Positions 29,596-56,720 of a DNA stretch of 64,000 nt are shown here, piece by piece. Each line of letters opens with the position of its first letter. Positions within the stretch are counted from its first letter, which is position 1. The notes beneath the pieces were generated by a model. The model was not told the origin of the DNA, did no database searches, and saw only the letters and a program-made list of their open reading frames with translations. The DNA lies in the NCBI GenBank assembly GCA_051362555.1, contig CM120641.1, positions 31,192,401-31,256,400 on the forward strand. Direction: 5' to 3'. Origin of the DNA: Lingula anatina. Its lineage: Eukaryota > Animalia > Brachiopoda. The position numbers and the translations under genes were made by a program.

Positions 29596-31435
29596 TATAA
29601 ACCTCGTTGGAAATATCGAAAACCACCAAGTTACAGGTTTGGTCAGTGCTCAAAAATTTTATATGTTCAAAAATGAATGTCAAACTATGGAAAAACCTGA
29701 ACAGACAAAGGAAAAAGCCCATCTACATTTGGCACAATTCAAAAACACAGTTACAATGCCGCTTTGTGTGCAGCCATTTTGGAAGACGAATGTAACTTCA
29801 GAAAATACTCAGTGAAATTGATACACGAACATTCCTTTGGGGTATAAGATGTAACTGAAGCATATGCTGTATCGTCTTTTTGAATTTATTAGTATATAAA
29901 TCAACTGGTCATTGTATAAACATATGTACATCTTACCTGTCTCAATGCCTTCTTCTCCCACCATTTTTTCTTAGAGCTATCCGCTCCCTTTTTGAAAACA
30001 AGGCCAAATCTAATATTTTCCTAAGTAACTGTCATATGAGCCACTGGCTCCCGGGCTATACTAAAACTGCATTTCATTTCAAACAAAAAATACTTGCAAT
30101 AATTGCTTCCTTCCATGTTTCCCTTCACTGTTTGGAGATTGTTAAAGAGAAATCAACTAAAAATCCACAGAAGTGTTTCTAAACACTCGAATTACAAAAA
30201 TGCTCAACAGAAGACTGTACCCAAGTGGTATAAAAAATAATCAATTTGAATAGGATGCCATCTACATCTTCACTACAGTACCAATGTGTGTTAAATAGTG
30301 CAAACTGCCATTTCATACTTTACCCAGGAAATGACAAAGAAAACAACCATCAATATGTTCCTTTCAATGATAACTATTCTAAGTTTATTCATTACTGCAA
30401 GCAAAAAAAAACAAACAAAAAAACAGAAAAAGGCTTTGTAAAAGACTAAATTATGCAATGTAAACAATAAACAAACTTTATGATCAAGATATATATTGGT
30501 CTATATGAGCATCACAATATTAAGTGAACTGTTCATTGTTCATATATATATACTAGTATATGTCATAGAGGCAAACTGCCCACATACGATCACAAAAGAT
30601 ATGAAGAGCTGTACACTGTGGCCATCAGGATCACTCAGTTTCACACTTAAGTACAGATTCATATTTAAGAGTACATGAGGAAAATTTTATTTCAATCAAA
30701 ACCAGGCTGCATGAAAACTACCAAGAGCTAATAAGTTGATGTGTTTTTTTACAAATACATAATCTACATTTCATTGGAGGAATGTAAACAGGAATATTAA
30801 CAGTATAGTATAAACAGTATATCGCTTCTGGTACTGTCTGGTACCATTTATGATTCAGATGAAGAAATGCCTTTAATAATTTTGTTCTCAGTTGAAAATG
30901 CATACTACATATTAAATATTAATTTAAAACCATTTGTAATTTTTTCACTGCACTCTCTATTGACGGATTGCCTGCAGTTAAGTTAGGTGGAAAGGATAAC
31001 ACGTGGCTTTGTTTGCTGGCTGCTGCTGTCAGGTAGCAGGCCTGTAGCCAGGGGGGTTCAGGGGTTCGAAAGAACTGCCCTTTTTGTCAGAAAAAAGTCC
31101 ATTCTGGGATACTCTGCCACAGGTGTACTGGTAAGACATCTACATGTAGACATGAATCACTGGATGACATGAATCACTAATTAATCCTGAATGACAGGTC
31201 TATACCAGTTCTCTTGCTGCCTTGTAACCACTCCCTGAAAAATGCACAACAGATAAAACTGATTTTAATAAAATGTGAAACAACCAAAAGGTTCAGGCTA
31301 TTGAGAGTTCAAGTACACACTTTGAAAATGCCAGAATAAGAAAAATGAAAATATTTCAAAAATATTATAAATTTAATGAAAAAAAGATAATCCTATAGAA
31401 CTGGTTTTCTAATTTGAGCATCACAGGATAACCAA

Positions 31436-31565
31436 GGCTGCAAGCAGCATGGCAGGACAACAGAGACGGCCAAAACATGGCAAGACAAGTGTGACTGCCA
31501 GCATCATGGCAGGACAACTGAAACTTCCAGAACATAGCGGGACAACTGAGACTGCTAGCTGGATG
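31436..31565. repeat. Short diverged patch of the 28/30-bp satellite found at 52550-56720
   Basis: catggcaggacaac..gagactgc units. Confidence 0.8.
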
Positions 31566-31629
31566 GCTTCAATGGCAGCCATTGTAATCCTTTCAGAATA
31601 GGAGTTATATGATGTGCACTATTGCACTT

Positions 31630-31979
31630 TATTTGACAAACCAGTTTTGCAGCCGAGTTTTGAATAACTTGTAATTAATTTTTTTTAATCTGATAGTCAC
31701 ATGTACCAAAGAGGAGACTTGCAGTAATCTTATCTTGATGATTTTTTTTAATGTATTTACTAATTTTTCAGTGGTTCTGTTATAAAACACTTTTCTTACT
31801 TTTCCAATGTGCATAAGATGCTGATTTACACATTCAGATACATGCTTCCCCACACAGTGCCATTTTCATTGAGGGTAACTACCAGATCTTTTACAGAACT
31901 AGATGGTTTTATAAGAACATCTATGCAAATGTTGGCATTTGCTGCATTTTTCCTATTTGCTTTGAACCTTGATGTAAAC
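31630..31979 (-). pseudogene. L2/CR1-like LINE reverse transcriptase relic, 3' part (5' part at 52296-52480)
   Basis: Degenerate KPSSSVKDLVVTL and HLMHIGKVRK..TEKLVN motifs typical of the RT C-terminal region. Contiguity with 52296 is shown by the uninterrupted paralog at 56874-57040. Confidence 0.6.
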
Positions 31980-32474
31980 TACCCTCTACCAGGGCACAGT
32001 ATTCATTCTAGGAATGTTTCAATATGGGACAAAGGGCCCCTATCATAAAAAGAAGTGGGTCATTACATTTTGAAGTGGGCCCTTTTTCAAATCTTTAAAT
32101 AATAATATGTAACACGTGTTTTACTGCTGTGGTTTTAATATTCAGAGATGAAAAATACTTTATATCATAAAAATAATATTTTGACTTGCAGGTTCACATT
32201 CAATAGGTTATCCCAACTTTCTAAAATAAGAGACTTCATGCTCGAAATTTTGTTTACAAATATAAGATTACACTGAAATATGTTGATGATTCTTTCACCA
32301 ATAACCAAAATCTTACTAAAACAAGATTTTAAAACCATTTTTGGCTTCAATTTATAAAAAAAACCATGAAATTTAATTAATTATATAAGGTTGAGATAGC
32401 ACATAAAAAGCTACCAGATTGAATGATATCACAAACATAAAAATCACTAAGAGAATCTGTCCCTTTTTTGATAC

Positions 32475-32999
32475 CTACAAAGAATGTATCGGAAGGATGA
32501 GGGAGATTGCAGCCAGCTTCAACAAATTGGGAAAGTCTTCACTATGGTGTGTTTTGATAATGCTCCACAGTTTGCAGGTGGCATCTCTTGCATACCCCAT
32601 TCTGAAAACCAATTCTTTGAGTTTAGACCATTCACTCATACCTTGTTTTTCAATTATTATTGGCACTGATCTGGACCCATGATGTTCAATAATGTTACCA
32701 TAATGGCTAGCAAGTTTCTGTATAGGGACTTCACCCCAATTTTCTCTTTCTGACTCAGACAAAAAGCTTAGTGGTCTCATGCTCAAATACCCAAATGCTG
32801 TTACCATATCCAAGTGTTCCTGGGGAAATCTGGCATTTATGTTGTTAATGAGATTGTCAATAAATTGACACTGAATTGCCTTGCATTGTTTTTCATAATT
32901 AGGACAACAAGTCAGAAGGTGGTCCCTGAAGAATTTACGTTGACCTGTTCCCACCTTCAGGAGAAATTCCTCGATGTAGCTGCCAGGTTTACCAGACAA
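32475..32999 (-). pseudogene. hAT-A transposase, 3' part (ZNF862-like), ending just before the catalytic Glu motif
   Basis: FIDNLINNINARFP..EWSKLK..FPNLLKLAAISLILPIHSL*; joins 49574 in frame once hAT-B is removed. Confidence 0.88.
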
Positions 33000-33375
33000 C
33001 AGAGATGCCTACCTAAAAATGTTAAAATCAGGACTTTTGGTAAAATTTTCAGTATTTTCTAATAACTTTCAGTAACACAAATCCAATTAATCAACACCTT
33101 ATTTAAATCATTAAATGTTATTAAGCACTACCTTATTTTTTTATTTTTCCTTATTTATGAAAAAACAATGAATGAAATGGTAAAAAGTTTAGGATAACCA
33201 TTATTTATTTCATCAGAATTTATTGATACACAATTTTATTATTCACAGATTAAATTCATTGTATGATTTAACAAATTACACATTCACTGTAAAAAGTTGT
33301 TAATAAAACCACAGCTTTAATTATAGTTCGTCCAACCTGTCACTTCGTTTATCAATTGGTAACTTTTTTAAGATA

Positions 33376-33534
33376 AACTAGAGGATCAGAGAGGCGATAC
33401 CGCCTCTGGATATTGTACCACCAGCTGGAGTAAGCTCATTTGTATGGAAAACCGAAAAAAAAAAGGGACACCACTACCAGTCTTGTGCTTGACAAGCTCT
33501 ATAAAATGCAATAAACTAGAATTCTCAAAATATG

Positions 33535-33611
<77 letters not shown>

Positions 33612-35148
33612 TGTAAAAATGGTCCTATCAATTTTCGAATTGACCTGTATTTTCCTCTCATTGATCATTCCGGTGATTTTCTAGACAAAAGGCCTATTTG
33701 TTTTCCTCGAAATGTATTATCAGTGTTGCATATTTGCTGATAAAAAAGAAAACCAAGAGGCAACACTGGGTATATCTCTGCTAGTTTTGAAGATATGAGG
33801 GGCAAGAAAATATGCAAAGTTTAGTTCATGGTGAAAAAGAAGGTCATAAAAAGTAAGTCAAAGGTCAATTTCAAGGCCACAGTCAGATTGCCAGTATATG
33901 CTTTCCTACTTAAGTTCAATAGCAACTATGAGCCTACCTCTGTCAGTTTTCCGAGATATAAGGGTGACAAAATTTACCAGGTTCAATTCATGGTGAAAAG
34001 TAGGTCAAAGGTCAATTTCAAGGTCACAGTAAGATTGCCAGTATATGACTTCCTACTCAAGTTCAACAGTAACTATGGGCGTATCTCTGATAGTTTTAGA
34101 GATATAAGGTCTGGAAAATTTGCAAAGTTTAGTTCATGGTGAAAATTAGGTCAAAGGTCAAATTCAGGATCACATAAAATTGCCAGTTTATGACTTCCTA
34201 TTCAAGTTCAATAGTAGCTATGGGCGAATCTTTGCCAGTTTTGGAGATATAAAGATCAGAAAACTTGCAAAGTGCAGTTCATCATGAAAAGTAGGTAAAA
34301 GGTCAATTTCAAGGTCACAGTCAGATTACCAGTATACGATTTCCTATTCAAGTTCAATAGTAACTATGGGCATATCTGTGCTAAAAAAACACTGAATATC
34401 TGATATTGAACTTTTTGATATAATGCAACGCCTAAGCCGAATTGAAAAAGGAAAAATGGGCACCACTTTCTGTGTTGCACTTGATAAGCTCTACAAAATG
34501 CAAAACACAAGAGGTCTCTAGCATTAACGGTTCCAGAATTACAGAAAGTTTTCTGTTTCGCATCTAATGGCCGCTACTCCGATGAAAATGCACCGATTGA
34601 CCCCAAACTCAAAAAGATGAAAGATGACCCAAAGGGTAACAACTACCCATAATATTATAGGTTAGATCTGTGTAGTTTCTGAAAATCAGCAGAAATAAAA
34701 AAATTTTCGCAAAAAAAATTAAGATTTTTAGAAAATCTTGGCCAGGTTGACCTCGAAATAAAGTCTAAAGTCAAATCCAAGGGCATATTTGGAATCTTCA
34801 CATATGACTTTCGGTCAGACTTCTGTAGTAATTTTTCCCATAATTTCTTCGATTTGGGAGATATTTGGCATTGAATTTTCAAAAATTTTGACAAGGGTGT
34901 GTTTCAACGAGCGTCATGCCCAGACCAATGCACTGACTGAGACAAAAAGAACAGGGGGTTCAAGTTGAGATTATATGTGACCTAAATCCAAGAGATGGGT
35001 ACATGGGTCCTTGCAGTCTAGGAGGAGAAGCAGTAATGGTGACTTGTATCCAGCGCCAGTACGCGGAGCCGCAGGAGCCGGCAGAGCCGTACGAGACGGT
35101 CGGGACTAAAATCATGAGTACCGCCAGCGTACACGCTGGTGGTACTAA
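33376..35148 (-). mobile_element. Helentron-type non-autonomous element (HINE family 2), complete copy
   Basis: 5' hairpin agtaccgccagcgt-ac-acgctggtggtact (35117-35146); 3' subTIR gtaccaccagc (33415-33425), stem-loop agaggcg-atac-cgcctct and CTAG-TTT terminus; internal tandem repeats of about 146 bp and (TA)n. Confidence 0.8.
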
Positions 35149-36479
35149 ATATGGCACTTACAATATTACTAGACCTTTTATACAAAAAAGGTATTAGTAT
35201 ATGAAAAGCACAAATTAAAAACCTACCATCCATTGACTGAACGGAGCATCCAAGTACTTCTAAGCGCAATTCAGGTCTCCCATTCCAGGCCAGAAGATGT
35301 ATACTTATGGCATCTGCTATGAATGGTGGGTGCATATACTGTGTAACCAGCCCATTCCAATCAGTGTTTCCGGACAGCTGAAATATTTTACTCAAGGTGA
35401 GGAATATGCAAATCAGTTGTTCTTAATGTTCAACAGTAAGATACCCAGACACTGTAATATATTTCAGATATACACTTATGCACTGTAATTTCGTGAAAAC
35501 ACACACACACTTAACAAGGTAACTATAGTAGCTTTCAAAAACAACACAAACTTATATGGCAATATATACATTTTTTATGAGTCTCAGAATAGATGTTATA
35601 AAAGTACAAATGTCATTGTTACATGTCTCTCCATACCTCCAGAGTTCCATTGGAAGAATAGTTGTGCCACCCCTTTTCATCATTGTAGGTAACTCTGTAC
35701 TGCGTTATCCAGTTTGTTGAAGTGGACTGTGTGGTATAACCCCCTAAGAGCAGAGAAAATTTATGTTTTTAGCTTTCTATGCATCTCATCTCCTCTCCAC
35801 TATCCCGTCCTCCCATCCTTACCTCCTGCTCTCTCTCTCTCTCTCTCTCTCTCTCATCCTCACTTCCTCAAATTAAAGCACAAACTACCCTTCCGAAATT
35901 GTCTCACCAACAGCACAAAAGTTAATCAACTTAATACCAGTTATCAAAAACACATTACTGTTACCCTACCTTGTGTGACAATCCCAGTTACAATACGCCT
36001 GGTATTAAAGGTGAGCTTGACCCAGGGGGCACTATCAGAAGTATTTGGAGCCCATGCACCTTCATCATAAAGACTGGAAAAGTATATCAGAAACCATTTA
36101 TGAAAACCCGTTTCCATGTATGTTCTGTAAAAAATCCATACAATTTGTAGGAAATTGATTAAGATCTACATGTAAAAAATTAATTTCTAGATTTGCAATA
36201 AGATTTAGCCAGAAAGAAAGGGGGGTGGGGATTCCACTGCTAAGTCTGAAGATGTATGTTTGCATTTACTACAAACACACACACAAAAGAAAAACACACA
36301 CACACATGCATATTTGTGTGTGTGATATATGTAAACGAATCTTACTGTATGTTTTGTTTTTGAAAGTTTGCTTCTGCTGCTTCTGATGACACTTCTACTT
36401 GACTGGATGACAACAGAGACTCACTGCAGGGTTCTAATTCAAATAAAGGTAAATTAGGAAAATCAAGGTCTGTCTTCGA

Positions 36480-36731
36480 CCCCTTTCACATACACACTAT
36501 TGGTCTACATAGACCAATACATTTCTATGGGATTGCTTAAATAGTGCAATCAGCTTAACTGAGTGACATGCCTCCTCTTCTTTCCAACGTTCTATAATCA
36601 CCAGCATTTCTGTATTCTTCTCAGTGCCAGGAGGCCTGTCATTCAGTTAAGCTGATTGCACTCAGCTAGAGTCCCCACAGAGTTGGATAGATCTACCTAA
36701 GACTAGACCAAAGGTGTGTATGGGCAAGGGA
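36480..36731. mobile_element. Palindromic MITE in a cargo intron
   Basis: catacac..ttggtcta / tagaccaa..gtgtatg ends; inner IR tgcaatcagcttaactga / tcagttaagctgattgca. Confidence 0.65.
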
Positions 36732-39700
36732 CTTTACAGATTATACTGATGATAAATTTAGGCCAATACATAATTTCTAAAATGACATACTCCAATCTAA
36801 ACATTATGATATCATTTAACAAAGTTATATAGACTTTATATTCAGTTGGCAGCCATCACAAAGTTAAAAAATATATTTCAAGCATGTTATTATCATGTTC
36901 CACACATACCCATGAAGCATTCCACCCTCAAAGAAAACTCTTTCCCATCAGGGCGTATCCAGTATTTACCAGGTAGAAACACACCTTGACTTTTTAGAGA
37001 TTCACAAGATAACGCTTGGAAGTGATATATCGCTAGGGTAATGAAAAAATATAACACCAATACAATAATATTGCTACCTGAATAATCTTATGAATGTTAA
37101 TTAGTCGTTTACCTGTTCCTTTGAAAAACACCTAAGTATGATTAATGATTAAAAAATAAGTGTGACCAGTTCAGTTGAGTTAAATTTAGACACATTTCAT
37201 TTTTTTTACCACATAAACAAAGGAAAATAATTCCTTCTTATCCTTCTTAAACTTAAGGTATCTGCCATCAATACTTACGGCCTATAAACAAAAGGGCATG
37301 ATTGGCACCACCACAGTTTTCCAGGGAATTCCCAGTGCATGTCTGCTCACACATCATTTCATCTGCTTTTGTTAAATCATTATAGTTCGTTCTACAATAG
37401 CAGTGAGTGAGGGACACAGCAACTATATGGTAATCAAGTCCCCGGCAGTACTCTATACACTGTAATGCTGACATGTGTTTATCACTGGTTACTTCTGCTT
37501 TCGAGGTTGTTGGTTTCTGGTAGCATCCCAGGTATCCTTGAAAATAAAGAACAATGCATTAATATCCGAAACCTATATTTATGGTAGCGTCATTCTGACA
37601 AGGAGCATATAACAAAGTAAAATCTTGACAAAAGGATTAATATTGTGTAAATTTGATATGTAGTTTTAAGGATATTTAAGGACCTTTCCTGCATCTGATA
37701 ATTCAGTAATGCATCTATCTTTGTGCTGATTTAAAAAAAAAATACTTGAAAATATAAAATATTGGCATTTATATTTCTCATTGCATTGTATAAGCATAGG
37801 CAACTCAAAGATTTAATCTTCCATTTAACACATATCTATTTTGAGGTGAGATAGCACTCGGTATGGGGCGTAACTTCATCTCGAAACAAGATTTTATCAC
37901 TAAAATTGGTAGAGTTGACCACAAGTGTATAGGTTACAATCCTGTGCATCACTTAAGTTCAAATGTTTTTGTTATGGAGTTATGAGCCCCTAATTACAGA
38001 TTTTCATTTAACAAGGGCATTATTTTGCTTTATCAACGATAAAATCTGAACTAAGACTTTTAAGAAAAATTGCTGGCAGGGTTTGGAGTACTAAATGGTG
38101 TCATTAAATCAGCATTGAAATGGTGACCATGAGTGCTCAGGTAAAAGAAAAATTTAAGAAACTGATTTTTCAGTTTTTACCCCAAAATCACAACTATGAC
38201 GTCGCCTGTAAGATGTGTAAATGTCAATTAATCTAGTCACTGAACACTGAAGATTATATATTACACAAAAAGAATGTATGTAAGGCAGTAAATAAGGAGT
38301 TTTGGGGAAAGGGTGACAATATCCTTTAAACCCTGTGTGTACGTGTGTGTGTGTAAAATCAAAAAAATCTTTATTTGTTTTAATCTATATTTTTTTAATT
38401 GATGAAGTTTAATCTAAATATTATAAACTGATTGCTTATTTTTTCCATAAAAACTCACCATAATTCTTTTGACAGATAAAAGAGGAGGCTGAGTCATTAA
38501 AATCCTGCAGTAAATATCCAATACCCTGTGACATAACCATGAATTGGCTCCAAACATCAGATGGTTCATTGGTATCCATGATACCTGTAACATCTACGAA
38601 GGAGCCATCAACACTGCGATAAACATTTAAAGAATATGGATCATATAAGCCAACCAGCCATTTTGAAATTGATGAGTACTGTGGTAATGTGGAGAGGACA
38701 TTCTGAAGATGACTCTTTATGCCAGTGTCTGCTGGCACAGCTATGTAGCCACCATCTTCCAAACATTTCCTTCTGGCTTCAGATGGAGAAACTTCTGTTG
38801 AATTGATGATAAAGCAGTTGCCCCAGTACCCATAACCCCAAGGACTGCTGCATTGTGTTTTATCTGCCAGGTCTGGAGAGAAAAAAAAATGTAATTCACT
38901 ACAATAAACAGTTGCCTTAAATCTTACCAGGCAAAACATATATACAAATATCTCTGCAATACTATGGACAACTATGTACCAAGAAGAGAATTTTGTTCAC
39001 TACAGTGCTTTTTTTTACCATATCATCAAAACAGTTTTTGCCATTTCATACATCTTATTTGAATAGTTTCTCTTAATTCCGAGGTTCTGATAAAAAAAAA
39101 GGGTGACACTCAAATTTAAGTCTCTAAATGATTGACATACATGCACATGTTGGTGGATATCCATCCCAAGTAAAGTTTGCCTGGCATGTGAGTCTTAGAG
39201 ATCCATTGACAACATCGTAGCCTTGGAAACAACCATATGTGACATCCCCTCCTATCTGATATCCCCCCACTGTTTTTGTGGCATTTACCCCCTCACCGGG
39301 GTCACTACATCCTAGAGTATATCATCAAAATATTCCATACATAATGTCCCTTATGGAGGTTATAAAATATTGTAAATCATAATATCTTAAACATTTACAT
39401 ACATGAAATACTTAGAACTTGTTAGGAAATGTTTGTTTAACTTAAAGGGGATAATTATTCCTAAACAAAATTTCAGTTTCAACTATAAGAATTAAGATAT
39501 TTCCCTTACGGTCACACTCCAATGGTGCCCCTCCTGTCCACTGTCCAGTCACTCCACAGGTAAAGCTTATATTCCCTGCACTCTGTGAATAACCAGCATC
39601 ACAAGTGTACTGAACCTCCTCTGAGTTCCTATAGTGGGTTTTCACTGGGCTGTAGGAGGCCATGGTACCATTGGGCGGAGGTGTGCAGCCTGAAAAGAGC

Positions 39701-41230
39701 ATTAATTGCCAGTTGTTTTAAACGATTACACAGGTCTTTTCAAAGATGCTAAACATTCTCAGTTTAACTAGTATGCGTATATATATATGTTTTAAGTTCT
39801 GTTACTAATGTTGAAACTTATGGGGAATGAATTAAAAGAGACAGGAGTAAAAATCAACAGAAATGTTTTCAGGTTTGTATAAAGAAACTGGTTCTGTAAA
39901 TAGAAAAATATATGCTCCAAATATTTTCCCCCTGAGATGTTTTGTTCACAACCAACATACCGCAGGCTGCATTTGTTATTGTTATATCATCAATAGCAAT
40001 AGAGCTGTCATCCACCATGGCACCTGATGTTTTTATTCCTTCAAATATGACCTGAAATCAAGACAGATATTAGTGACAACAATCTACACTATGTTCTGAT
40101 GCCAATCACGTGATCCAAGGAGGATATTTGATAGACGCGATATATTAATTTCATCACCATAACAAAATTTCAACATTGTGAATTATTAATTGTCAAAATT
40201 CACCATATCAAGCTGGTTTAATCTGATCGCTCTCTTACTTGGAACCTCTCCGTAGTGTTTATGAGGACATCCACATGTCTCCACTGATCTTGACTACTGC
40301 CGTCATGACTCCATGCTGTATATATCTGGCTGCTGCCATTTATCTGGTATTTCACATTGAACGTCACCAAATGAGATCCAAATGCATAGTACTCAAAGCT
40401 TACAGTGGCCTGGCAGTGTTCCTGGGAAATGTTTATCCATGGGGATCTTATCCTTGCTGTGGCTTGTGAAGAAGCAGTCTGCCAAATTGAATTGTTAACA
40501 TATTTATTCCAACCAGTACAGAATTTTAACTTACTTTATTTTTTTATGATTATGATTGTCTCAAAATACATAAAATCATTTAAGAGCTTGTATCATCACT
40601 TGAGAAGGAATGCATCACATCAGAGGTACGTTTTTCAAAGATGTTATGCTGCCCTCCCCCTTATGCCTGCCCCTCCCCCCCCCCCCCCCCCCCCCCCCCC
40701 TCAGATCCCCAGCAAATACATTACCAGAGAGGTAGTACATGTACCTGATATCTGGGTTCCAGCAGGTAGTAGAATCCATCATTCCCTGTGTGGTCTGCCT
40801 GTGGCCCAGTGCTACTCCTCCCTGGAGCTTCTCTCTTATAAAGAGTCCACTCCAACTCTTCATCTTTATCTTGTGTGAACCCACAGTTATCACTGTCAAA
40901 TTGAAAGGACGCTGGGGTGGACACAACTGAAATGAAAGACCATAAAAGATGATGTGAAAATAACTGATCATGATCACTGATAGGCATGACTTCCTTGAAT
41001 TCACTTTGCTTATGCAAAAGGTGCAAGGTGACTGATCTGGACCTCCCAAGGCAAGAGAGTGGTTTGCCTTCATTTGTTTTCAACCTCAGACTATGTGAGT
41101 TATTATTATTCATGGTTTGGGCTTTTGATAATTGCCAGACAATCATCTTTAAAAAATTACTGAAATATAACACATAAACATAATCTTTGTCAATAAAGGA
41201 AGACTATATATACCAATAAATACATATACA

Positions 41231-41388
41231 GGGGGCATCTCAATAGTCCAAAGGCTCACTGGTCCAAAAAATCGTAGCATTATCATCAGTTTTTTAATCA
41301 AGGGTTCGTTGGTCCGAAGGATCTATAGTGAACATTCGGACCAATGAACCTTCGGACTATTAAACCTTCGAACTATTGCCACAGCCCC
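41231..41388. mobile_element. Small MITE with internal ggtccgaagg/ccttcggac repeats
   Basis: gggg..caatagtcc / gaactattg..cccc ends. Confidence 0.5.
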
Positions 41389-43335
41389 CACATACATATT
41401 CATGTCCAGCTTCATGTTTTGTGGCAATTAAGGCAACAATGCAGGTGTTTAAACACCCCTTCACTTTGAGGATCAAGATAATTTAAAATCTGCACAAAAA
41501 TAGGTCATAGAAAGATTTAAGCTAAAATATTAAGGAACACATTTAAATAAACTAATTAAAGGCTCTAACAACTTTACTCAGTACACACACAAACACAGCA
41601 AGAAAATTACAATATGCTGTACTTTAGCATACCTTCTATACAGTTGCCAGGCACCTGAATCACTCTGATACCATCAATAGCTATATCTCCACCAGTTCCA
41701 GATCCAGCAATACCATTAAACTGAATCTACAAAAAGAATGTGTATGTTTAGTTTTACATGAACCTATTGTAATACAATTAATTTACAAGAAGTTTGGTAT
41801 CTAATCAGGAGGGAACATAAAACATTGTTCTATATACATGTATCAAGCAATGAAAGAAATATATACACATTCAAGGGGATGAAAAAATATTTTGCTTGTT
41901 TTTAATAATATGAAGGTTTAGAATATCTATATAAGCAAATAAGAAAAATTTAATTTCAGTCAGTTTCTTAACTATTTTGTTTTGTTTCATAAATAGGATC
42001 ACTCTATTTGCAAAAGCACTAAGGCTGTGAAAGTTTACAAAAAAAAAAAAAATTAAATGGATATGGACAGGAGATCAAATGGATTCTGGAACATATATAT
42101 TTGACAAACATTAGCCAGACAAACAAGTTTCCAGACAGAGAGACATACAGATGGAAATACAAGACAGACAGGCAGACAAACATACTTTAAAATGAATAAT
42201 TCCAGATGGTTGTAGGATCCATGTATATTCCTTCCATGCATTCTGGACCTCATTTAGATGGAAAAGTTTCATATTCCGGTTGAAAGTCGACTGCCCAGAT
42301 TCTTTTTCAAGTAATATTACAGTCAGTGCATTGACATCACCACCATAGATGTGTGCCCAGAATCTCAAAGTCACTAATCCACACTGATGAACCTCAAGAT
42401 CTGGAGTCTCCAAAGCAGCTATGGCACCATTTGACTAAAAGTTGGATTAGTACATATTATGTATCTTTAATAAATCAGCTATATTGTAGAATTTTCTCCT
42501 AACTTGTATTACATGAAGCAAATCGATGCCAGTTCCAGACTAGAAACGCAGCCAACATCTAGATTTTCTAAGAAATTTTTTATCTCATATTAATGCATAA
42601 TAAATTTGGTACAATCTACATACTTGACCATCTACTTCAATATACAAGTAATGTCCTATGCCTTCTTTTGTTATAGGGTCAGCAGAAGGTCCAGTGCTTG
42701 CAGTAGGAGTGGATCCGCTCTTCAAAGTCCAGTCAAACTGATCTGATGTGAGCTGATTAAAGTTGCAAATGGTGGAGTTCTCAAAGTCACAGCTGGTTTC
42801 GTATGGTAGACCTGCAGATGGTGGGGCAGAGATGTTAGACAACAATAAAATAAAGCAATCAAATGTATTCAAAATAAAAAAAAAAAAAACAATTTCCCAT
42901 CCTACCTCGTAGTACAGTGAAAAGGTGATTTACCGACAAGCATCGATTATTATAATATTTCTAATGGAAAAACTTTTGTAAATCAAAACCTTAAGTTTAC
43001 GTGCTATTATTATTATTCCATACTAATATCTAAACAGACTGAATTCTTTACCACTATTATCATCTCCTTTCACTTGTATTTCACACAGATTCATAATTTC
43101 GTTGTTTCCTTCTATCTGAATGGAGACATATCTGCCCGCTAGTGGACTGGCACAGTTAAAAGTGTCAGTGGCTCCCCCTGCAGGCCATGTTCCAGTATAG
43201 TTAGAACACCAGATCCAAGTACTAGAGTCATGTCCTCTGTCGATGTCAAACTCATCACTCACAGATATTACGAAGTCATGAAGACGGTCATCTGGAACAG
43301 TTTTTGTCAGGTGAGATACTATATGAGTTCATGAC

Positions 43336-43336
<1 letters not shown>

Positions 43337-43390
<54 letters not shown>
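43337..43390. repeat. (AAT)n microsatellite
   Basis: Directly visible. Confidence 0.95.
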
Positions 43391-43391
<1 letters not shown>

Positions 43392-44785
43392 TTTTAGGGT
43401 GATGGAGTGTTAAATCAGTAATAATATTTGTAACCCTACCAGCAGGTCCAAATATTTTTCAATATTTTTAATAGTCTAAGATCACAATTTGAATTCTCAA
43501 AACCTTTAATGTTTTACATGTTCTAAAAAAAGGGATCCTTGCAACATATTCAAAATCATGCTTTGCTTTCCTTTTAAGCAAATTGGTATGTGCATAGTTC
43601 AACTTACTGCAGCAGTCCCCTCTCCCTGTAATAGTTACAGTGGTAATAAAGGTGTATCTCTGAAGATCTACTACAAACCAAGGATCTGTCATAGCATTAG
43701 ATTCCCAGCAGGATTTATGTGAATAAATCGGATCTTGGTTTCCGTCTAAAACTTGATATGGTGAAACTGCATTTGTGCTACCAGCATACGCCTCTTTTCC
43801 AAAAGCAAGGTTTTCACCTGAAATTAAGTCTATAACAGTGCATATTGTACTTTAAACTGTATCCTAAGTACTGTACAGCATCATCACCACAAAATATGCT
43901 TCGAAAATGTTGCAATTTGTGTTATAAATACATTTAATTTGATTGAAATTAATATGTACTAGATTATTTACATTTGTTGTATCTTTAGTATAGTTTTTAA
44001 AAATATTTTTGCTTTTTTCTCTATGTTGTGATGCAAGAATATGACAATCATTGAGCTTCTCTTAATTAAAATATATACCCAATGCAATCTGCAAGAGATA
44101 TTACATGTATCAATATTAAAAGACTGAATGGAATGCAACATTTATGAAATCTCTGAAAAAGAAGATGAAACCATAGCAGAAAAGATTTATGTTAATTTTT
44201 GGGCACTATTTTGTTTCACTACAGAGTTATATCAAGCAACTTAATGCCTCCTCTGACCAGTAATAATTTCAGATTTTCAAATCCCTCACTTTTTGTAACA
44301 TTCTAATCTACCATTTCTAATATTTTCAGACACTAGTATCATTGTACTTTCAAGTTTCAATTATTTTTTCAAAGATTTTTATGTCAAAATATCTATGGAA
44401 TTCTTTATTTTTTATATATACTTACAGTTCATCTGGGTTAAAATGTTCACATCATCTATGGCATAATCAGACTCATGATCATTTCCCCTCTGAGCTTCAA
44501 AAACAATCTGAAATTTGAAGAATATGGCATAATTTAAATTCTATGGTGACAGTGCATGTATCATTCTTCATATGTGACTTTGAGGATTTGATTTAGTCTG
44601 ACAAACATTCACAAAGTAAATAAAGCAATAAATCTATATTACTATAAATATATACTACATCATGGACTTTGAGTAAAGATACATAATTATAATTTTCAGC
44701 ATCATACCTGAAACTTGACATTTTTAAGAGGTAACAGTAATAACTCGTGCTCTAGCTCCATTGGGCTAAAAACAAAGACCAATGA

Positions 44786-46089
44786 AACTAGACAATAGGC
44801 CTATTGGTTTTCCTTGAAATGTGTTATCAGTGTTGCATATATGCTGACAAAAGAGAAAACGTAAGGGCAACACTGAGCATATCTCTGCTAGTTTTGAAGA
44901 TATGAGGGGCAAGAAAATATGCAAAGGTCAGTTCATGGTATATGATTTCCTATTCAAGTTAAATAGTAACTATGGGTATCTCCTTGCTAATTTTGGAGAT
45001 AAAGAGGCCAGAAAACATGCAAAGTATAGTTCATCATAAAAAGTAGGTCAAAGGTTAATTTCAAGGTCACAGTTAGATTGCCAGTATATGACTTCCTGTT
45101 CAGGTTCAATAGTAACTATGGGTGTATCTCTGCCAGTTTTCGAGATATAAGGGAGATAATTTTTGCAAAGTTCAGTTCATGGTGAAAAGTAGGTCAAAGG
45201 TCAATTTCAAGGTCACAGTTAGATTATCAGTATATGACTTCCTATTCAAGTTCAATAGTAACTAAGGGCTTATCTCTGCTAATTTTTGAGTAATTCACAT
45301 TTTATTTTCACTACTGAATTTTGGATGTTGAACTTTTTGATTAGTGCAATGCCTAAGCCGTATCAAAAACAAAAAAAATGGACACCACCCCCAGTGCTGC
45401 CCTTGACAAGTTCTACAAAATGCAAAAAACAAGAGGTCTCTAGCATTAACGGTTCCAGAATTAGAGAGAATTTTCAGTTTCGGCATCTAATGGCCGCTAC
45501 TACCATGAAAATGCACCGATTGACCCCAAACTCACGAAAATGAAAGATTACCCTAAGGGTAACACCTGCCCATAATATTATAGGAAAGATATGTTTCGTT
45601 TCTAAATATCGGCTGAAATAAAAATTTTCTCGCAAAAAATTCCCATTTTTAGAAAATTTTGGCCTGTTTGACCTTGAAATAAAGGTCAAAGGTCAAATCC
45701 AAGGGCATATTTGAAATCCTCACATATGACTTTTGGTCAGCCATCTGTTGTAATTTTTCCCATAATTCCATCGGTTTGGGAGATATTTAGCATTGAATTT
45801 TCAAAATTTTTGACAAGGGTGCATTTCAACGAGCGTCACGCCCAGGTCAATGCACCAACTGAGACAAAAAAACCTGGGGGTTCAAGTTGAGATTATATGT
45901 GACCTAAATCCAAGAGATGGGGACACAGGTCCTTGCGGTCTAGGAGGAGAAGCGGTAACGGTGACTCGTATCCCACGTCATCCTGCGGAGCCGCAGGAGC
46001 CGCAGGAGCCGGCGGAGCCGGCGGAGCTGTACGAGACGGGTCGGGACTAAAACCATGAGTACCGCCAGCGTACACGCTGGTGGTACTAA
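44786..46089 (-). mobile_element. HINE family 2, second copy, lacking its 3' terminus
   Basis: Same 5' hairpin (46058-46087) and body as 33376-35148. Similarity stops at ctagac (equivalent to 33681), so about 305 bp carrying the subTIR and stem-loop are absent. Confidence 0.82.
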
Positions 46090-46267
46090 TGATTTACTAT
46101 AGAAAATTAAGTTAAAGATTTTCTACAAGACAATTCATAGAATGAAATATTTGCAAAGTCTAAATGTGTAGAAATTAAATTGTCCTGTGCTAGCAACTGT
46201 ATGATGCACTAGTTTCTAAAACTAAAGCATGATCACACTCCTAGAGGTTTCCCTATTGTTTATTTCT

Positions 46268-49200
46268 CTACACATGCTTACTGAGTGATTCAACATAACA
46301 GGATTTAAGGCTATCTAGTTGTTTCCTGGTGTAACTCCTGGCCCCAGCATTCCCTGATCTTGATTTGTTTATCAAAATAGCCTCCAGGGTTTGAGAGCTC
46401 ATGTTAGGCCTGAATGCAGTGTGAGTTTTTCTGACCATGCTGAAAACTCTTTCACAGTGTGCACTGGAGTGTGGGATGGTTAGGATCCTTAACATGAACT
46501 TGGGCAGAACTTGAAACATCTGCACACCATTCTCATCTTTCATCTGTCCCATTTCTGCCCATGCTTCATCCAGCCGATCCTTCTTGATATCCCTGATGTC
46601 AGTTACCTGATATAGAGCAAACTCGCTTTCCAGTTTCCCTCTCTCCTCTTCTGGTATCAGGCATGGGAACTTCTTCAGAAAGAACTGTACTGATGACTGA
46701 TAGCTTTCAGTCTGCCGCTGCATGTCTGTGACTTCTGCATGTTTCAGCAATTCACATGAAAGAGGCAGCTTCTGTTTAATGTATGAACAGGCTGTTGAGA
46801 AGAATGATTTCACATTCTTGTGGAATTCCTGAATTCGCTTATCCCTCAGGTGGTTGTCTTTCTTCTGAGAAAGAAATGCTTTTGCCTCATCTCCAATGAG
46901 CAGATCATTTTCAGCCTTAATGTTGCTGGATACAGTGAACTGCACATCAAGGACACCCTTGTAAATCATAGCTGACGGTTTGACGAACATTACTAAGAGT
47001 TCTTTGAGCAGACTGTGCAGGCGTCTACGCAGAACATGGATCTTTGGTTCAGCACACTGCAGCTCTGTGTTATATTTATCAAAAACAGCTATGGCATGCT
47101 TCAAAAATAAACAATACAATCTGTTTGTTGGTGACTTGAAGAATGCCTTCATTCGGTCAAGACGATCAGCTTGCTTTGAGCTTGTTGAAGAACTTTCCTC
47201 TCTAATGAATTGGAGAAGCGGATCCCAGTTCTCAAGAACTCTGTTAAGGCATCTTGAAACACTTAACCAGCGGGTGCACACATGTTTCAGCATGTCAGCA
47301 TCTTTTAGCTCGTGAAGCACCTGCATTGCTTTGAGCGAAGATTTTCGTAGTGAACTCTTGTCTAGGTAATAGTAGACATCCACAAGAATCTGATCAATGC
47401 TGAATGGAAGGCAATGAGCAGCTGCAAATAACATTGAATAACATTTGTTAGGACAAACTCAATGAATATTGAATAAAACAATACTGATACCATATAATCA
47501 AACAATATTTAAATTCAAATTAAAATACATTTTCAAAGACATTTTTGCTTATTTCAATAATGAATTCAAATACCATTTTCAGCTGCATGGTGAATCAGAT
47601 GACACGCGCAGCCAGACAGATAAATGGAAGGGTGAACTGTAAGCATATGTCCATACACTCCATTCTTCTTCCCGACCATCACATTGGCATTATCAGACCC
47701 TAGTGCTATACAATTTGTCCAGGGAATGTGTTCATCTTGAAACACTTTGTCAATCAGATCAAATATGGCCTTCCCTACAATAACAACAAAAATATAAAAA
47801 TCAATGTGATTTACAAGTAACTCATAATGCAACACAGAATCATAACATTTGCATTGGTTTTAATAAAAGTATTATAAACTAAAGCAGTTAAAGGGACACA
47901 AAAGAGGATTCTCCCGCCAACACTAACATCAAACGAATTTTCCCAAGGTAAACGGCATTTTTCCACCTTTTATCATCCTTTTCTAACACTCGCCATACTT
48001 ATGTAACAATTTTGGAAAAAGGTGAAATATCCAAACCTGTGCTTAAGCGCGGGTTTGTCTTGATGGCTGACTACATAGGCTGAATAGGGGACGGTGAATA
48101 TAGCTGTTTTGCGATATTGTTTAAGGCCATCTATCTTTGAATTTATGTTTTAAACGTTTTTATTGTACTCATGTAAGTTCAACAAGAAGCGATTCATGTC
48201 TTTACATTGCGATCAAAATCCTATTTTGTGTCCCTTTAATATTTTAACTTAATCTCAACAAATAATGCTACTATGAAATCATATTGAATAAGAAAATAAA
48301 AAACAAAATAAAAAATACACACCATCATGCATCAATGATCAGTCAGCAGGCAGAACGATTGTTAAAAAAAAAACTGAACATGAACAATCTCTGAAAACAA
48401 AACAAAAGAAAATATATTCTCTTCACAATTGATGAACAAACTTGACTGGGTTGAAAGTGTTAGTATATGAATAAAATACATGCATATATTCCCCACAAAA
48501 AGTAATTGTAATATATTATTAGCGAAGTTTTAAAATTCCATTCACTACTAATGTGCGTGTGTGTGTTTGTATATTCACATGTATTGCAATAAAATATTAT
48601 TATTTCATATAAAAATTTCAGCTTTACCTGTTGCTGATCCTTTACAAGTCGGCACACTCAGCACGTCTGATCTGACCTCAGAAGTTTGTGGATCGACGCA
48701 TCTAATCACAAGAGGGAATAGTTTCTCCGTATCGTTGCTACCATCTGTCGATATGGTAAAAGGGTTGTCTTTGATTATGTCGATCAAACGTTTCTGGGTA
48801 TGCTGGGCATTTTTCTGTACAATTGCCGTTGTTTTTGAGCGCCCGCATGCAAACGATTTGGCGATTTCAGAGTCACTGAACTTGGTTTTACATATGGCTG
48901 TTATTTTGTCCATAATTGAAAATGGGAGATTTTGTTCCACACAGAGATCGACGAAGGCAACCTCCGCATCAATCACATTATATTTCAGTTGAGTCGTCTT
49001 TTGTAAGAACTTGCTCATGTTTGAGCTGACTGCGGCCTTCGCCAACTTGGCATATTCAGCGTGTTTCTTCGACTGCACATGTCGGCGGCAGTCATCCCGG
49101 CCACCGTGCGCGATGGAAATGTCCACGCGGCACACTTCGCAATACGTATGACAACTGCCTTGTTTGCTTGCCTTTAAGCAAGGCCACTGTAATGTGTAGC

Positions 49201-49270
49201 TGGGGATAAAGTTTTGGCTCCGTTTCTTCGCGCTTTTGTCATTTTCTTCGCCTTTACGCTTCTCCGCCAT
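46268..49270 (-). CDS. hAT-B transposase, 3 exons, 665 aa, apparently intact
   Basis: Exons 48628-49270, 47574-47774 and 46268-47421 (643+201+1154 = 1998 nt, phases 1/1). Zn finger CEVC..H....H, STDGSND, GSDNANVM, CACH, TRWLS and SSAHCERVFS motifs. Confidence 0.9.
47892..48235. mobile_element. Kolobok-like MITE in intron 1 of the hAT-B transposase
   Basis: ttaa|agggacacaaaagaggatt ... aatcctattttgtgtccct|ttaa: TTAA TSD with AG..CT termini. Confidence 0.8.
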
Positions 49271-49567
49271 TTCTGACAACACGTGTGTAGCAGAATGAAA
49301 CGAAACTGGTGATCTTTTCAATACGCATGCGTCAGTCCCTACATAGGTTACTTACACTAGACATGATTGGATAGTTAGATACGACACTTCCGCTATTTGT
49401 ATTGTGGACTCTACTTACTACGGTATAAACAAAAACAAACAATTCAATCAATGGTTATATTAAATATACCCCAATAAAACGTACTTCAAAACTATTCTTC
49501 CGTAACATCGTATTTTATTGTCAAATCCGTACAAAATACGGCCAAATCGTAACGATAGGCATCTCTG

Positions 49568-51493
49568 AGACAACCCTTCACTACTTGTGGCATGGTCCCT
49601 GTGCTTTTGCAGTTCTCTCAATGCATGCTTCACATTAACATCCACCAAGGCTGGGTCAAGATCTTTCTTTTGGAAGAGTAAACATAGCTCTGTGACAATG
49701 CTGAGGATGGACAAAAGCATATGGGTGACAAAAACAAAACTGAATTGTGAAAGTTTCTTTGCAAAACCTTTTGCCTTGGCATCACTTGCCCCCATTTCAG
49801 ACATATAGGACACTAATGACCCATAAGTCCTGTAAATTGTTTTTATTGCTTTGTAGTAGGGCAACCATCGAACCTCATGGACTTCATTGCACTTTAAAAT
49901 AGGTTCATCCAGCAGCTCCTGAATAGCTGTGATTCTGTTTACCCTGACAGATGATGCTTTAAAGTAATAAAATATACTGGTAATAGTTGATTGATAGTCC
50001 TTCATATAGTCTATAGCATTTGCTGCCTGGCTAGTACATAAAGCCAATCTGTGGGCAATACAGTGTATGTGAACCATCGCAGGATTTTCAGCAAGCAGTC
50101 TGCCTGCAACTCCATTTCCCATGCTGGTCATGCTCGCTGCACCATCAGAACCAAAACCATATATCTTACTTAAGGGGATCTCCTTTGATTTAAGATAGTC
50201 TTTGATAGCTGCTGCAACTGTGGCACCCTTGCCATCTGTGACATTTATGTCGGCTACAAAGTGGGTAGAAGGAACAAAGTTATCATCTAAAAGTCTGACA
50301 CATATAACCAACTTTTTTGTTACTGTTATATCAGTGCTCTCGTCTGCTAGTATTGTTAGAAATGGTGAAGACTTCATTTTCTGAAGCAAGTCTTCCTCAA
50401 CTGTGGCAGCAATAGCAACAACCATATCCCACCCTGCTGTATCAGAATTATACTTTGCATTGTCTCCTTGGTCTAAGTATGAAAGGTTGGGGCAATCCAG
50501 GTGCTGTAGCAACTCTATTAGGCTTCCAAACTTTCAAATTGCTATGCCCTCTTGAACTAGCCAGTACACGGACTTCATTGATGTCATGATTGCTCCATCT
50601 TTACCTAAAAATGTTTTATAAACGTTACTTTAAATTTGAATTTGGACATTATAACCTGCATAAAATGTTAAATAGTGTTGAAGGTACCTGCAAACATTAC
50701 TCCAGCACACAATCCCTTACTTTATTTTTCCCTTAATCACCATGAACAGAGACCAAATCTCTCGACACACTAAAATTATGAAAAATGAATGTGAAAATTT
50801 TATCTATATATATACAAAAAATAATGTTCAGGGAAAAAACATGAGCGTAACGCCCTGTGTCAATGCTACGCAGCAAACGCATTGTTTACATAGTTGTTCA
50901 GCATTGCGATATCCCAGAATGCACTTTCGAGAGTTCTTCAACCTACACAAATATAACTACAACACGTGGGTCCGGGACCGTCACGATAATCAACAACGTA
51001 CACTAGTGTCACTTTGCTGGCTCATGCTCCGTGTTACAAATAAATATTGACAAAAAATAATATCTTACCTTCTAAAGCTCTGCAAAAAGCCTGTTTAGCT
51101 TGAGCTGATTCCGACGTTTCTTGTATGGCAAGCTTGTGGTCTTTAGATGTCTCATGGTGCACAAGGATACTGGTTCGAAAGTTATTAGTCCCTTGAAATA
51201 ATATATTGTCCTTCTTTTTTTCAACACATCAGCTGCAATACATCAAGTTTGCGTTATTGTCTTATACAAGCCACTTGTAAGTATGACCTTCAAGTTGCAT
51301 TTCTAGTTGACACGGTATCAGAAGTCATGACAGCAGCACATACATCTACTTTAGCTCTCTTCTCCGGTGGAAATGTCTGCTGTGTATGATCATTGTCTCC
51401 GTCGCTACTATTCTGATCCGTTTTAGGGTGATCTTTGGGATCAACTTTCTTAAAAAAACTTAAAATAACACTTAGCTTCTTCTCCGCCATCAT
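49568..51493 (-). pseudogene. hAT-A transposase, 5' part (ZNF862-like)
   Basis: Exon 51069-51493 (disrupted Zn-finger region) and exon from 50604 with an in-frame stop. Motifs ILADESTD, GFGSDGAASM, HCIAHRLAL and EVRWL. Confidence 0.9.
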
Positions 51494-52295
51494 GTACAAT
51501 GTACGTGTTGATCAATTGATTTACATGGACAATTAATCTCAGCCTATCAGGGATTCAAGAAAGGAGGGGTGATCGCCACTGATTTCCATAAAAAGCATGA
51601 CATCAGCATAAATTAAGATATTTGTTAAAAACTGCGACGAGCAAAGAATATCTTCATTACGTCGAACATAAGATCTTGATGTCAAGAGATGTCGAGTAAA
51701 CAATCAAACTTTGGTCGTGAATTTGCCGAATTGGAGGGCGCGTTTAGAACACAAAAATGCGCCACTGTTAATTCTCTTGAATTTTGTTGGCGCAGCTCAC
51801 TCTAGGAATTGCGTCAACCTAATTTTTTCTGCGCCAATGACGCAAGGGCGCATCCTAGAATGAACACTGAGGTCAACAGATTGATTTTCCACAGATATTC
51901 ACAGATACGTCTCTAGATAAGTAGACAATCATTTTGGTCTGATGTCACCCTGTACTGAAATCTCAAGGATGATTACATGGCTTGTAAATGTTTGCATAAC
52001 TACTCAGGCATGGTCACTTAGCGAGTCCCTGCAAAGTCCCCTTGACAGTAATCAAGATAGTGAATTTCTCATCTGTGACAATAAAACAGCCCTTTAACAG
52101 ACAGACAAGACAAGGCAGGTTGCATAACAAGTGTTAATCATATTGGCGCAAAGCCCAGCTCTCATTGAGGTCCTGCAGAGCAAGTACAAAGCCTTCTGCC
52201 TGCGTGCAGAATTAATTGTTTCCTCCTGGCCAAACATAACAGGGTCGCCTCAGCAAATATGTCCACAACAATAACTGCGGCCCTGGGCGAGGGTA

Positions 52296-52480
52296 GATGT
52301 AAACCATATCAACTCGACCTTAGTATCATTTAAAGCCAACATGTTCACTTTCATCCATTACTCGAAAACTCTGCAAGACAATCCTCCATAGGAGTGATTG
52401 TTGCAGACTGGTTGCTCTTGCATGTAACATAAACTTGTATGTCAGCTGCTAAAATGACAGTGTTCAGACCATGTTAAAGT
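52296..52480 (-). pseudogene. L2/CR1-like LINE RT relic, 5' part
   Basis: The minus strand reads LAADIQVYV (degenerate YADDTQLY) followed by MEDCLAE. Confidence 0.55.
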
Positions 52481-52549
52481 ATGATATTTTCTACAGGTTA
52501 CATGTATAATAATGAGAATAGGATTGGACTTAACACAGCATCAAGGGAG

Positions 52550-55500: not shown

Positions 55501-56720
55501 TGGCAGGACAACCAATGTCTGCCAGCTACATGGCAAGACAACTGAGACTGCCAGAACATGGCAGGACAACCGAGACTGCCAGAACATGGCAGGACCACGT
55601 GGACTGCCAGTTTCATGGCAGGTCAGCCGAACCTGCCATCAGAATGACAGGACAGCTGAATCTGCGAGAACGCTGGCAGGACAACCAATGTCTGCCAGCT
55701 ACATGGCAAGACAACTGAGACTGCCAGAACATGGCAGGACAACCGAGACTGCCAGAACATGGCAGGACCACGTAGACTGCCAGTTTCATGGCAGGTCAGC
55801 CGAATCTGCGAGAACGCTGGCAGGACAACCAATGTCTGCCAGCTACATGGCAAGACAACTGAGACTGCCAGAACATGGCAGGACAACCGAGACTGCCAGA
55901 ACATGGCAGGACCACGTAGACTGCCAGTTTCATGGCAGGACAGCCGAACCTGCCATCAGAATGACAGGACAGCCGAATCTGCGAGAACGCTGGCAGGACA
56001 ACCATGTCTGCCAGCTATATGGCAAGACAACTGAGACTGCCAGTTTCATGGCAGGTCAGCCGAGACTGCCAGAACATGGCAGGACCACCAAAACTGCCAG
56101 TTTCATGGCAGGACAGCCGACCTGCCATCAGAATGACAGGACAGCCGAATCTGCAAGAACGCTGGCAGGACAACCAATGTCTGCCAGCTACATGGCAAGA
56201 CAACTGAGACTGCCAGAACATGGCAGGACCACGTAGACTGCCAGTTTCATGGCAGGACAGCCGACCTGCCATCAGAATGACAGGACAGCCGAATCTGCAA
56301 GAACGCTGGCAGGACAACCAATGTCTGCCAGCTACATGGCAAGACAACTGAGACTGCCAGTTTCATGGCAGGACAGCCGAACCTGCCATCAGAATGACAG
56401 GTCAGCCGAATCTGCGAGAACTCTGGTAGGACAACCAATGTATTCCAGCTACATGGCAGGACCACATAGACTGCCAGTTTCATGGCAGGACAGCCAAACC
56501 TGCCATCAGAATGACAGGACAGTTGAATCTGTGAGAACTCTGGCAGGACAACCAAGTCTGCCAGCATCATGACTGGACAACCGAGACTGCCAACATGTCA
56601 GGACAACTGAGACTGCCAGAACATGGCAGGACAACGGAGACTGACATCAGAATAGCAGGACAACCCAATCTGCCAGCTACATGGCTGGACAACCAAGTCT
56701 GACAGCATCATGGCAGTCTG
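52550..56720. repeat. Satellite array: 28-bp monomers, 30-bp monomers, then a 173-bp higher-order repeat
   Basis: 28-mer gagactgccagaacatggcaggaccacc (about 52615-52895); 30-mer with ctgccaatgtcatggcagg (about 52895-53520); 173-bp period shown by ORF starts 54375, 54548, 54721, 54894, 55067, 55240, 55413, 55586, 55759. Confidence 0.97.

Follow-up and report, generated by a model that had tools for sequence, protein, structure and literature searches.

A HINE-bounded fragment of a MALRD1-like lectin gene in a young hAT transposon of Lingula anatina, probably a compound rolling-circle unit

The 64,000-nt stretch of the Lingula anatina genome analyzed here (GCA_051362555.1, CM120641.1:31,192,401-31,256,400, forward strand; referred to as the window, with all coordinates below given as window positions) holds two nested hAT transposons, an outer hAT-A and an inner hAT-B, and within the latter a 12.7-kb block (33378-46089) made up of a fragment of a MALRD1-like lectin gene and two bracketing HINEs, named H1 (upstream) and H2 (downstream) in minus-strand order. 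We favor the view that this block is a compound rolling-circle unit of the Helentron type, which was probably copied from the lectin gene into one young copy of hAT-B. As far as the sequence goes, the structure appears to be real: a HINE-bounded lectin fragment in a hAT6-like hAT-B, itself in hAT-A, with the hAT apparently not being the carrier. A sequence-only reading of the window had earlier taken the locus for a hAT that captured the lectin exons by itself, a proposal which finds no support here, the insert being bounded by HINE termini and not by random breakpoints in hAT-B.

The DNA evidence comes from contigs of the sequencing runs X1, X2, X3 and X7 aligned to the window, and the statements made below cover the contigs listed for these runs; contig depth serves as a rough guide only and gives no copy number. 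Both ends of hAT-B carry a short terminal inverted repeat (TIR) identical at 12/12 positions and diverging beyond, and a 6-bp target site duplication (TSD), AGACAA, is present on both sides, exactly as had been read from the sequence. Contigs of the empty site, which lack hAT-B and contain a single AGACAA, were found in 4/4 DNA runs and fix the TSD at 6 bp, in place of the 8 bp of a typical hAT; an 8-bp TSD for hAT-B was ruled out by the same empty site. Upon deletion of hAT-B and one TSD copy in silico, a hAT-like frame is open again from 50533 through 32475. Perfect 12-bp inverted repeats with identical 6-bp flanks, placed 1-30 kb apart, occur as 2 pairs in the window by a scan made without a shuffle control, and the second pair lies within a long-inverted-repeat element (17748-19020).

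A family contig of the 3' end of hAT-B covers the element to 33377 and then continues into sequence unique to window position 46090 (4/4 runs), and therefore the common form of hAT-B is a 3,856-bp element with neither HINE nor cargo, which agrees with the 3.85 kb estimated earlier for the element minus its cargo. The proposal of a cargo-bearing hAT family finds no support in this contig, and the locus is likely the one-off nested insertion that the earlier reading had foreseen if no other loaded copy was found, with the limit that short run contigs of this kind drop rare links and a rare second cargo-bearing copy could escape them. Alternative flanks at the TIR at 33000 are seen in 3/4 runs (X1, X2 and X7), so the family occupies other sites, and a 2,521-bp contig of X3 differs from the hAT-B of the window at 4 letters; the hAT-B family is young. 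Contig depth is 294-935 over the 3' end in the four runs, and 176 (X3) and 329-447 (X1) for transposase contigs, versus 22-50 for the listed cargo contigs. The 3' end (33000-33377) exists in two variants, the X1 contig being the same as the window and those of X2, X3 and X7 lacking 4 bp at 33317 and differing at 33198 and 33337. Metagenome loci (n=73) gave only one DNA match to the element, of 79 bp, and neither the hAT-B transposase nor the HINE 5' end was present in viral contigs.

The transposase of hAT-B, described earlier as intact, spliced and bearing the hAT motifs, bears this out: its three exons join through GT-AG introns into 665 residues, with an AATAAA at 46264 downstream of the stop. 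The motifs D176, D242, CxxH (residues 270-273), RW (332-333) and E605 were all found, and D176, D242, H273, R332, W333 and E605 are common to 90% or more of aligned rows in a comparison with 19 long homologs; both splice junctions are crossed without a gap in the 7 homolog rows examined. Pfam reports a hAT dimerisation match, exon 3 is 100% identical to P0001 (Lingula anatina LOC106154078, a single-member cluster on a 172,227-nt contig) with the next relatives at 52% or less, and another homolog, P0006, matches the Hermes transposase (E 3e-5). Judged by its CxxH, RW and DDE motifs, its C-terminal dimerisation domain and its short TIRs, hAT-B is a member of the hAT superfamily. hATs with a 6-bp TSD have been named hAT6 (PMC12730594; this and the other papers are cited here from excerpts), and the TSD of this copy has that length. 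Pairs of CAG-starting TIRs with distinct 6-bp TSDs were found at 5 of the 21 relative loci scanned (73 fetched), and 2 more have a 5-bp match, these relatives being merely 28-29% identical to the query. By TSD length hAT-B appears hAT6-like. A distant 2.3-kb hAT family (loci L028, L030, L033, L034 and L038) likewise has CAG-starting TIRs and varied 6-bp TSDs, with copies about 99% alike, and two of its members (L033 and L038) are made longer by inserts.

The boundaries of the insert coincide to the base with the 5' terminus of H1 and the 3' terminus of H2, as judged from the empty target (4/4 runs), and the unit sits without duplication in a T run located 178 bp past the transposase stop, beyond the AATAAA. 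The two termini are in the same orientation with host DNA between them, which is the geometry of a compound unit. HINEs are characterized by subterminal inverted repeats (subTIRs) of 11-15 bp near both ends, an inner inverted repeat at the 5' side, a palindrome 8-35 bp from the 3' end and central tandem repeats (features and spacings in PMC4067079; oyster Cg_HINE in PMC7492417), and all of these could be located in H2. Its 11-bp subTIR begins 3 nt from the 5' end and sits within a short inverted repeat, the reverse subTIR is 37 nt from the 3' end, and a palindrome with a 7-bp stem is 12 nt from that end, with T residues flanking the element. H1 shares the 5' end of H2 but lacks the 3' subTIR and palindrome, and a subTIR scan of the window allowing 1 mismatch gave 5 matches, none of them at the H1 end. 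Other members of the HINE family extend beyond 44790-44791 (40 + 26 contigs in X1, 918 reads in X12), and H1 ends in TCTAG followed by TTT, like the true end of H2. The simplest reading is that H1 would be an intronic insertion minus about 300 bp between two TCTAG words, with its T flank kept. In a self-comparison the two HINEs, which lie on the same strand, show a likeness of 85.5% across 1,279 columns, with no 100-column window exceeding 92%; they are therefore independent insertions and poor substrates for homologous exchange. Repeat copies at 10663-12547 and about 60250-61800 contain 337-bp and about 160-bp tandem units similar to the HINE region around 33631-33752 and 44791-44860, and possibly belong to a related HINE family.

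The cargo comprises 18 exons spread over 44507-35227 on the strand of the transposase, with 3172 nt, 1057 codons, zero stops and GT-AG borders at 17/17 introns. Of the two exon counts given earlier, 18 stands and 19 does not, since the alignment to the parent protein described below is free of gaps; the candidate 19th exon was ruled out by that alignment. The estimate of about 1057 open codons proves exact, whereas that of 9.5 kb for the cargo fits the 9,639-bp lectin segment between the HINEs and falls short of the whole 12,712-bp insert. The order of domains is the end of a MAM, F-type/F5-8C, MAM, MAM, 2 Sushi, a CTLD-like region, WSC and F5/8C. Pfam supports the MAM, F5/8C-type, Sushi and WSC domains claimed earlier and gives no match for the CTLD; the CTLD-like region has 8 weak matches in the PDB, all 8 of them C-type-lectin proteins (E 0.12-0.79), along with a 33% match to a mannose-receptor-like record. 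The cargo has neither a start codon nor a signal peptide nor its own stop, and no promoter was found for it. Lectin exons outside the TIRs of hAT-B, whose splicing to a single-copy cargo would have refuted the earlier reading, are absent from the 64-kb window. The donors of transposase exons 1 and 2 are of phase 1, as is the acceptor of cargo exon 2, which they would match in frame. The cargo is likely a young, untranslated fragment. With its last donor unused, the frame continues through the intron into H2 up to a stop at 35018 (35018-35422, minus strand). The cargo introns carry high-copy repeats at 36481-36730 (an inverted-repeat element in intron 14), about 37600-38400 (intron 12) and about 41000-41500 (intron 6), and contig depth is high in introns 12 and 6.

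With cargo exon 12 as the query, HMMER reported 46 matches, of which one, at 94%, is P0078, a 2574-residue MAM and LDL-receptor class A domain-containing protein 1-like protein of Lingula anatina encoded on a separate 483,913-nt contig and forming a single-member cluster. The cargo aligns to residues 802-1858 of P0078 without a gap and with 1017/1057 residues identical (96.2%), and the full parental gene expected elsewhere in the genome could thus be located. The 801 residues that precede this segment and the 716 that follow it have no window exon outside the element, so the cargo is an internal duplicate of the P0078 gene with neither start nor stop. Protein searches that started from cargo exons 12 and 5 and covered proteins of up to 2000 residues gave no match; P0078 exceeds that length and emerged from the HMMER search alone. 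We compared the 40 differences between cargo and P0078 with an amino-acid null of 5000 neutral simulations, a crude test with the transition bias fixed. Conservative (positive-scoring) differences number 22 against a mean of 11.5 expected, a value reached by 2/5000 simulations, and there are no changes of Cys or Trp (P 0.011) and no stops (P 0.10). We read these differences as probably reflecting working alleles or paralogs that diverged before copying and not selection on the cargo; being selected-looking and undecayed, they agree with recent copying from a working allele. In X1, a 392-bp and a 352-bp contig are identical to the cargo and a 352-bp contig in X3 has 1 difference, and four other cargo contigs listed for X3 have 17-29 differences in 293-449 bp; near-identical and diverged versions of the cargo therefore coexist. 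P0078 contains an internal near-identical F5/8C repeat (residues 1739-1858 and 2044-2163), and the last cargo exons are a mosaic of both copies (6 and 5 differences), which hints at conversion or at another donor allele.

The series of events that we consider probable would start from a haplotype of the MALRD1-like gene with two same-strand intronic HINEs, the upstream one lacking its 3' subTIR and palindrome. A trans-acting Helentron Rep/helicase would have started at the 5' end of H1 and found no terminator; read-through would then have copied the 9.6 kb with the 18 exons and ended at the 3' end of H2, all in a single step. The unit lies in the T run of hAT-B without duplication, as the empty site shows, and the hAT-B copy itself inserted into hAT-A with the 6-bp TSD now seen at its ends. 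Several points weigh against this account. We infer the presence of H1 and H2 in introns of the donor, the parent being known as a protein, and the Helentron is supposed to act in trans, no autonomous partner having been identified for these HINEs. None of the contigs listed for the 4 DNA runs bridges any junction of this locus, which neither confirms nor refutes it, and at 32962-32987, outside the left TIR, the depth is that of the hAT-A contig alone in 4/4 runs. Repair between HINE copies can yield the same geometry, and a second allele joined by mistake would account equally for the selected-looking 3.8% difference from P0078.

The first of the alternatives, HINE-guided ectopic repair, supposes that a lone HINE in hAT-B was broken and then mended with the stretch of the lectin locus that lies between two HINEs in introns, so that two chimeric HINEs resulted. 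It arrives at the same final geometry without rolling-circle read-through and has analogies in the literature: DINE-1/DNAREP1 elements at the breakpoints of new Drosophila duplicates have been attributed mainly to ectopic recombination (PMC2211543), and transposition-independent gap filling accounts for most single-copy Pack-TIRs (PMC8277862). Yet it requires two rare events in one young copy, the contigs listed for the four runs contain no lone HINE at this site of hAT-B, and H1 and H2, at the low likeness given above, have no near-identical tract; we regard it as doubtful. It is rather improbable that the structure is an assembly artefact in which a genuine HINE insertion in hAT-B was mis-joined through the HINE repeats to a second lectin allele. 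The resemblance of the cargo to a working allele, with its open frame and conservative differences, would be explained in this way, as would the lack of listed contigs over the junctions and the lack of a cargo protein on record (the P0078 cluster has 1 member). However, two mis-joins would be needed through repeats whose likeness is only about 86%, the window is free of N and its 4.1-kb tandem array (52590-56716) is resolved, which suggests long reads, and the summed contig depth over the cargo, though it gives no copy number, often exceeds that of single contigs. Capture by the hAT itself through gap filling or template switching, with the cargo-bearing element spreading as a family and the HINEs as passengers, is very unlikely: the TIRs, TSD and transposase are intact, the family is active and young and hAT Pack-TIRs are known in animals, a few of them multicopy (PMC8277862), yet hAT capture would not lead one to expect that both breakpoints coincide exactly with HINE ends within a T run, the family contig is without cargo in 4/4 runs, and the depth of transposase contigs, rough guide as it is, stands well above that of the listed cargo contigs.

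Under the compound rolling-circle reading, the order of the two insertions is a separate question. It is likely that hAT-B entered hAT-A before it received the compound unit, making the locus a one-off nesting. The reverse order, a relay capture in which an intact autonomous hAT at another site was loaded with the lectin cassette by a Helentron before the 16.6-kb element jumped into hAT-A, is unlikely. Movement of the loaded hAT-B by its own transposase is possible, as judged from its intact ends and transposase. hAT vectors such as Tol2 carry more than 10 kb.

About 6% of the RNA runs X12 and X15 gave a mean depth of 0-0.7 in repeat-free lectin-exon bins and of up to about 2 over the transposase; the parent, alignable at this likeness, is equally unseen, and the animals may lack the insertion. 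No splice joint was seen among the 15 joints listed for the RNA runs, and a run search listed no RNA holder. Both RNA runs contain much HINE-family RNA (33681-34380 and 44790-46050), with a strong bias to one strand (first mate on the plus strand) and a depth of up to about 1260; this RNA comes from other copies of the family.

Table 1. Features of the nested elements, in window positions
Feature	Positions	Strand	Remarks
TSD of hAT-B, left copy	32994-32999	+	6 bp, AGACAA; single copy at empty site in 4/4 runs
TSD of hAT-B, right copy	49568-49573	+	6 bp, AGACAA
TIR, 3' end of hAT-B	33000-33011	-	12/12 match; family contigs begin at 33000
TIR, 5' end of hAT-B	49556-49567	-	12/12 match
hAT-B 3' part	33000-33377	-	378 bp; directly joined to 46090 in cargo-free copies (X1, X2, X3, X7)
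hAT-B 5' part	46090-49567	-	3,478 bp, with transposase gene
Transposase exon 1	48628-49270	-	BED-type zinc finger motif, first catalytic D176
Transposase exon 2	47574-47774	-	D242, CxxH
Transposase exon 3	46268-47421	-	RW, E605, hAT dimerisation domain, stop; 100% to P0001
Insert (H1 + lectin segment + H2)	33378-46089	-	12,712 bp, in T run without duplication
H1, 3'-truncated HINE	44788-46089	-	1,302 bp; has 5' subTIR and inner inverted repeat, lacks 3' subTIR and palindrome
H1, 9-bp microsatellite	45985-46027	-	
H1, 146-bp central repeats	44938-45290	-	
Cargo, segment of MALRD1-like gene	35149-44787	-	9,639 bp, both ends in introns
Cargo exons 1-6	44507-44426, 43817-43608, 43291-43052, 42811-42624, 42434-42186, 41726-41633	-	
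Cargo exons 7-12	40926-40745, 40478-40239, 40051-39961, 39689-39510, 39311-39141, 38872-38459	-	
Cargo exons 13-18	37536-37279, 37032-36910, 36433-36346, 36073-35970, 35743-35637, 35377-35227	-	
H2, complete HINE	33378-35148	-	1,771 bp; inner inverted repeat
H2, 5' subTIR	35145-35135	-	
H2, 145-bp central repeats	33849-34377	-	
H2, (TA)35	33537-33607	-	
H2, 3' subTIR	33425-33415	-	
H2, palindrome	33407-33390	-	
hAT-A transposase frame, 5' part	49574-50533	-	DUF4371 match below cut-off
hAT-A transposase frame, 3' part	32475-32999	-	In frame with 5' part after hAT-B removal; stop in dimerisation region

The outer element, hAT-A, is multi-copy, with its empty-site contigs at a depth of 422-1012 in 4/4 runs, and the window copy differs by about 0.9% from the X3 contig. 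A further exon lies near 51490-51070 (minus strand), and the window copy, with a stop immediately ahead of 50533, ends early in the dimerisation region; a TIR/TSD pair for hAT-A was not found between 30500-32500 and 51000-52700. Elsewhere in the window, the 4.1-kb array (52590-56716) is GC-rich and built of 28/29-bp units in higher-order 145- and 173-bp units, and a short stretch related to it lies on the opposite side of the nested elements (31438-31567). At 17549-19224, three blocks of long inverted arms, 81-86% complementary, surround a decayed transposase-like region that looks Tc1/mariner-like by eye, with no Pfam match for the two open reading frames tested. A fragmented Tc1/Tc3-type transposase (Pfam HTH_Tnp_Tc3_2 and DDE_3) lies at 8615-9610, and an open reading frame with a strong DUF6729 match (E 1e-56) at 2465-3145 (minus strand), beside 246-bp and 57-bp tandem repeats. 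Rfam gave 0 matches.

The closest known counterpart is HelibatN539, a compound Helitron of bats inferred to have arisen by end-bypass capture (PMC4224331), in which one rolling-circle copy's 5' end and a second one's 3' end, in the same orientation, likewise surround a region of a host gene. In contrast to it, the present unit has Helentron/HINE ends (subTIRs, T-run target), its 9.6-kb cargo contains 18 coding exons and landed in an autonomous hAT, and the flanking copies in the parent gene are surmised. Compound transposition has been proposed for HINEs (PMC4067079), and the present family shares with HINE/DINE-1 elements the subTIRs of H2, the inner inverted repeat, the microsatellite, the central tandem repeats, the 3' palindrome and the T-rich target without duplication. 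Unlike the published ones, it is a brachiopod family and offers an actual case in which two elements form one unit around several exons, its empty target being on record. Maize Helitrons, of up to 39 kb and with up to nine gene fragments (PMC6431247), similarly show a large intron-containing gene fragment moved by a rolling-circle element; they have canonical ends and are from plants, whereas the Lingula unit is from an animal and has a single uninterrupted piece of a single gene.

The view that Pack-type capture is known mostly from plants is dated, as 370 animal Pack-TIRs have been reported from 100 genomes, 208 of them hAT and four multicopy (PMC8277862). The present locus resembles these in having host sequence within hAT TIRs and a TSD, with the parent elsewhere, and in being apparently single copy. 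Animal Pack-TIRs arise by gap filling or FoSTeST and are for the most part short and degenerate, with a consensus median of 374 bp (PMC8277862), while in the present case an intact autonomous element is the carrier and another transposon's ends bound the cargo. Among the open-licence papers listed by the literature search, no title or abstract opening concerns this locus or a Helentron-loaded autonomous hAT, and the supplementary tables of the Pack-TIR and bat papers may hold comparable cases.

The present biological effect is probably small because the loaded element is a single, likely untranscribed copy. If real, the locus would document from nature, with uncommon clarity, how a non-autonomous element of the Helentron type underwent compound transposition and transduced many exons, combining both ends, a terminator-less upstream copy, an empty target site, a parent protein and a cargo of 18 coding exons. 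It would also mean that an element with the looks of a Pack-TIR can be the product of a different transposon. Were the relay capture true, it would give an animal Pack-hAT formed by a route beyond gap filling and FoSTeST and able to spread arrays of lectin domains, with a cargo far larger than that of the Pack-hAT example given in the excerpted source (PMC8277862). The structure, if real, would thus provide a concrete route to domain shuffling in the mosaic lectins of marine invertebrates.

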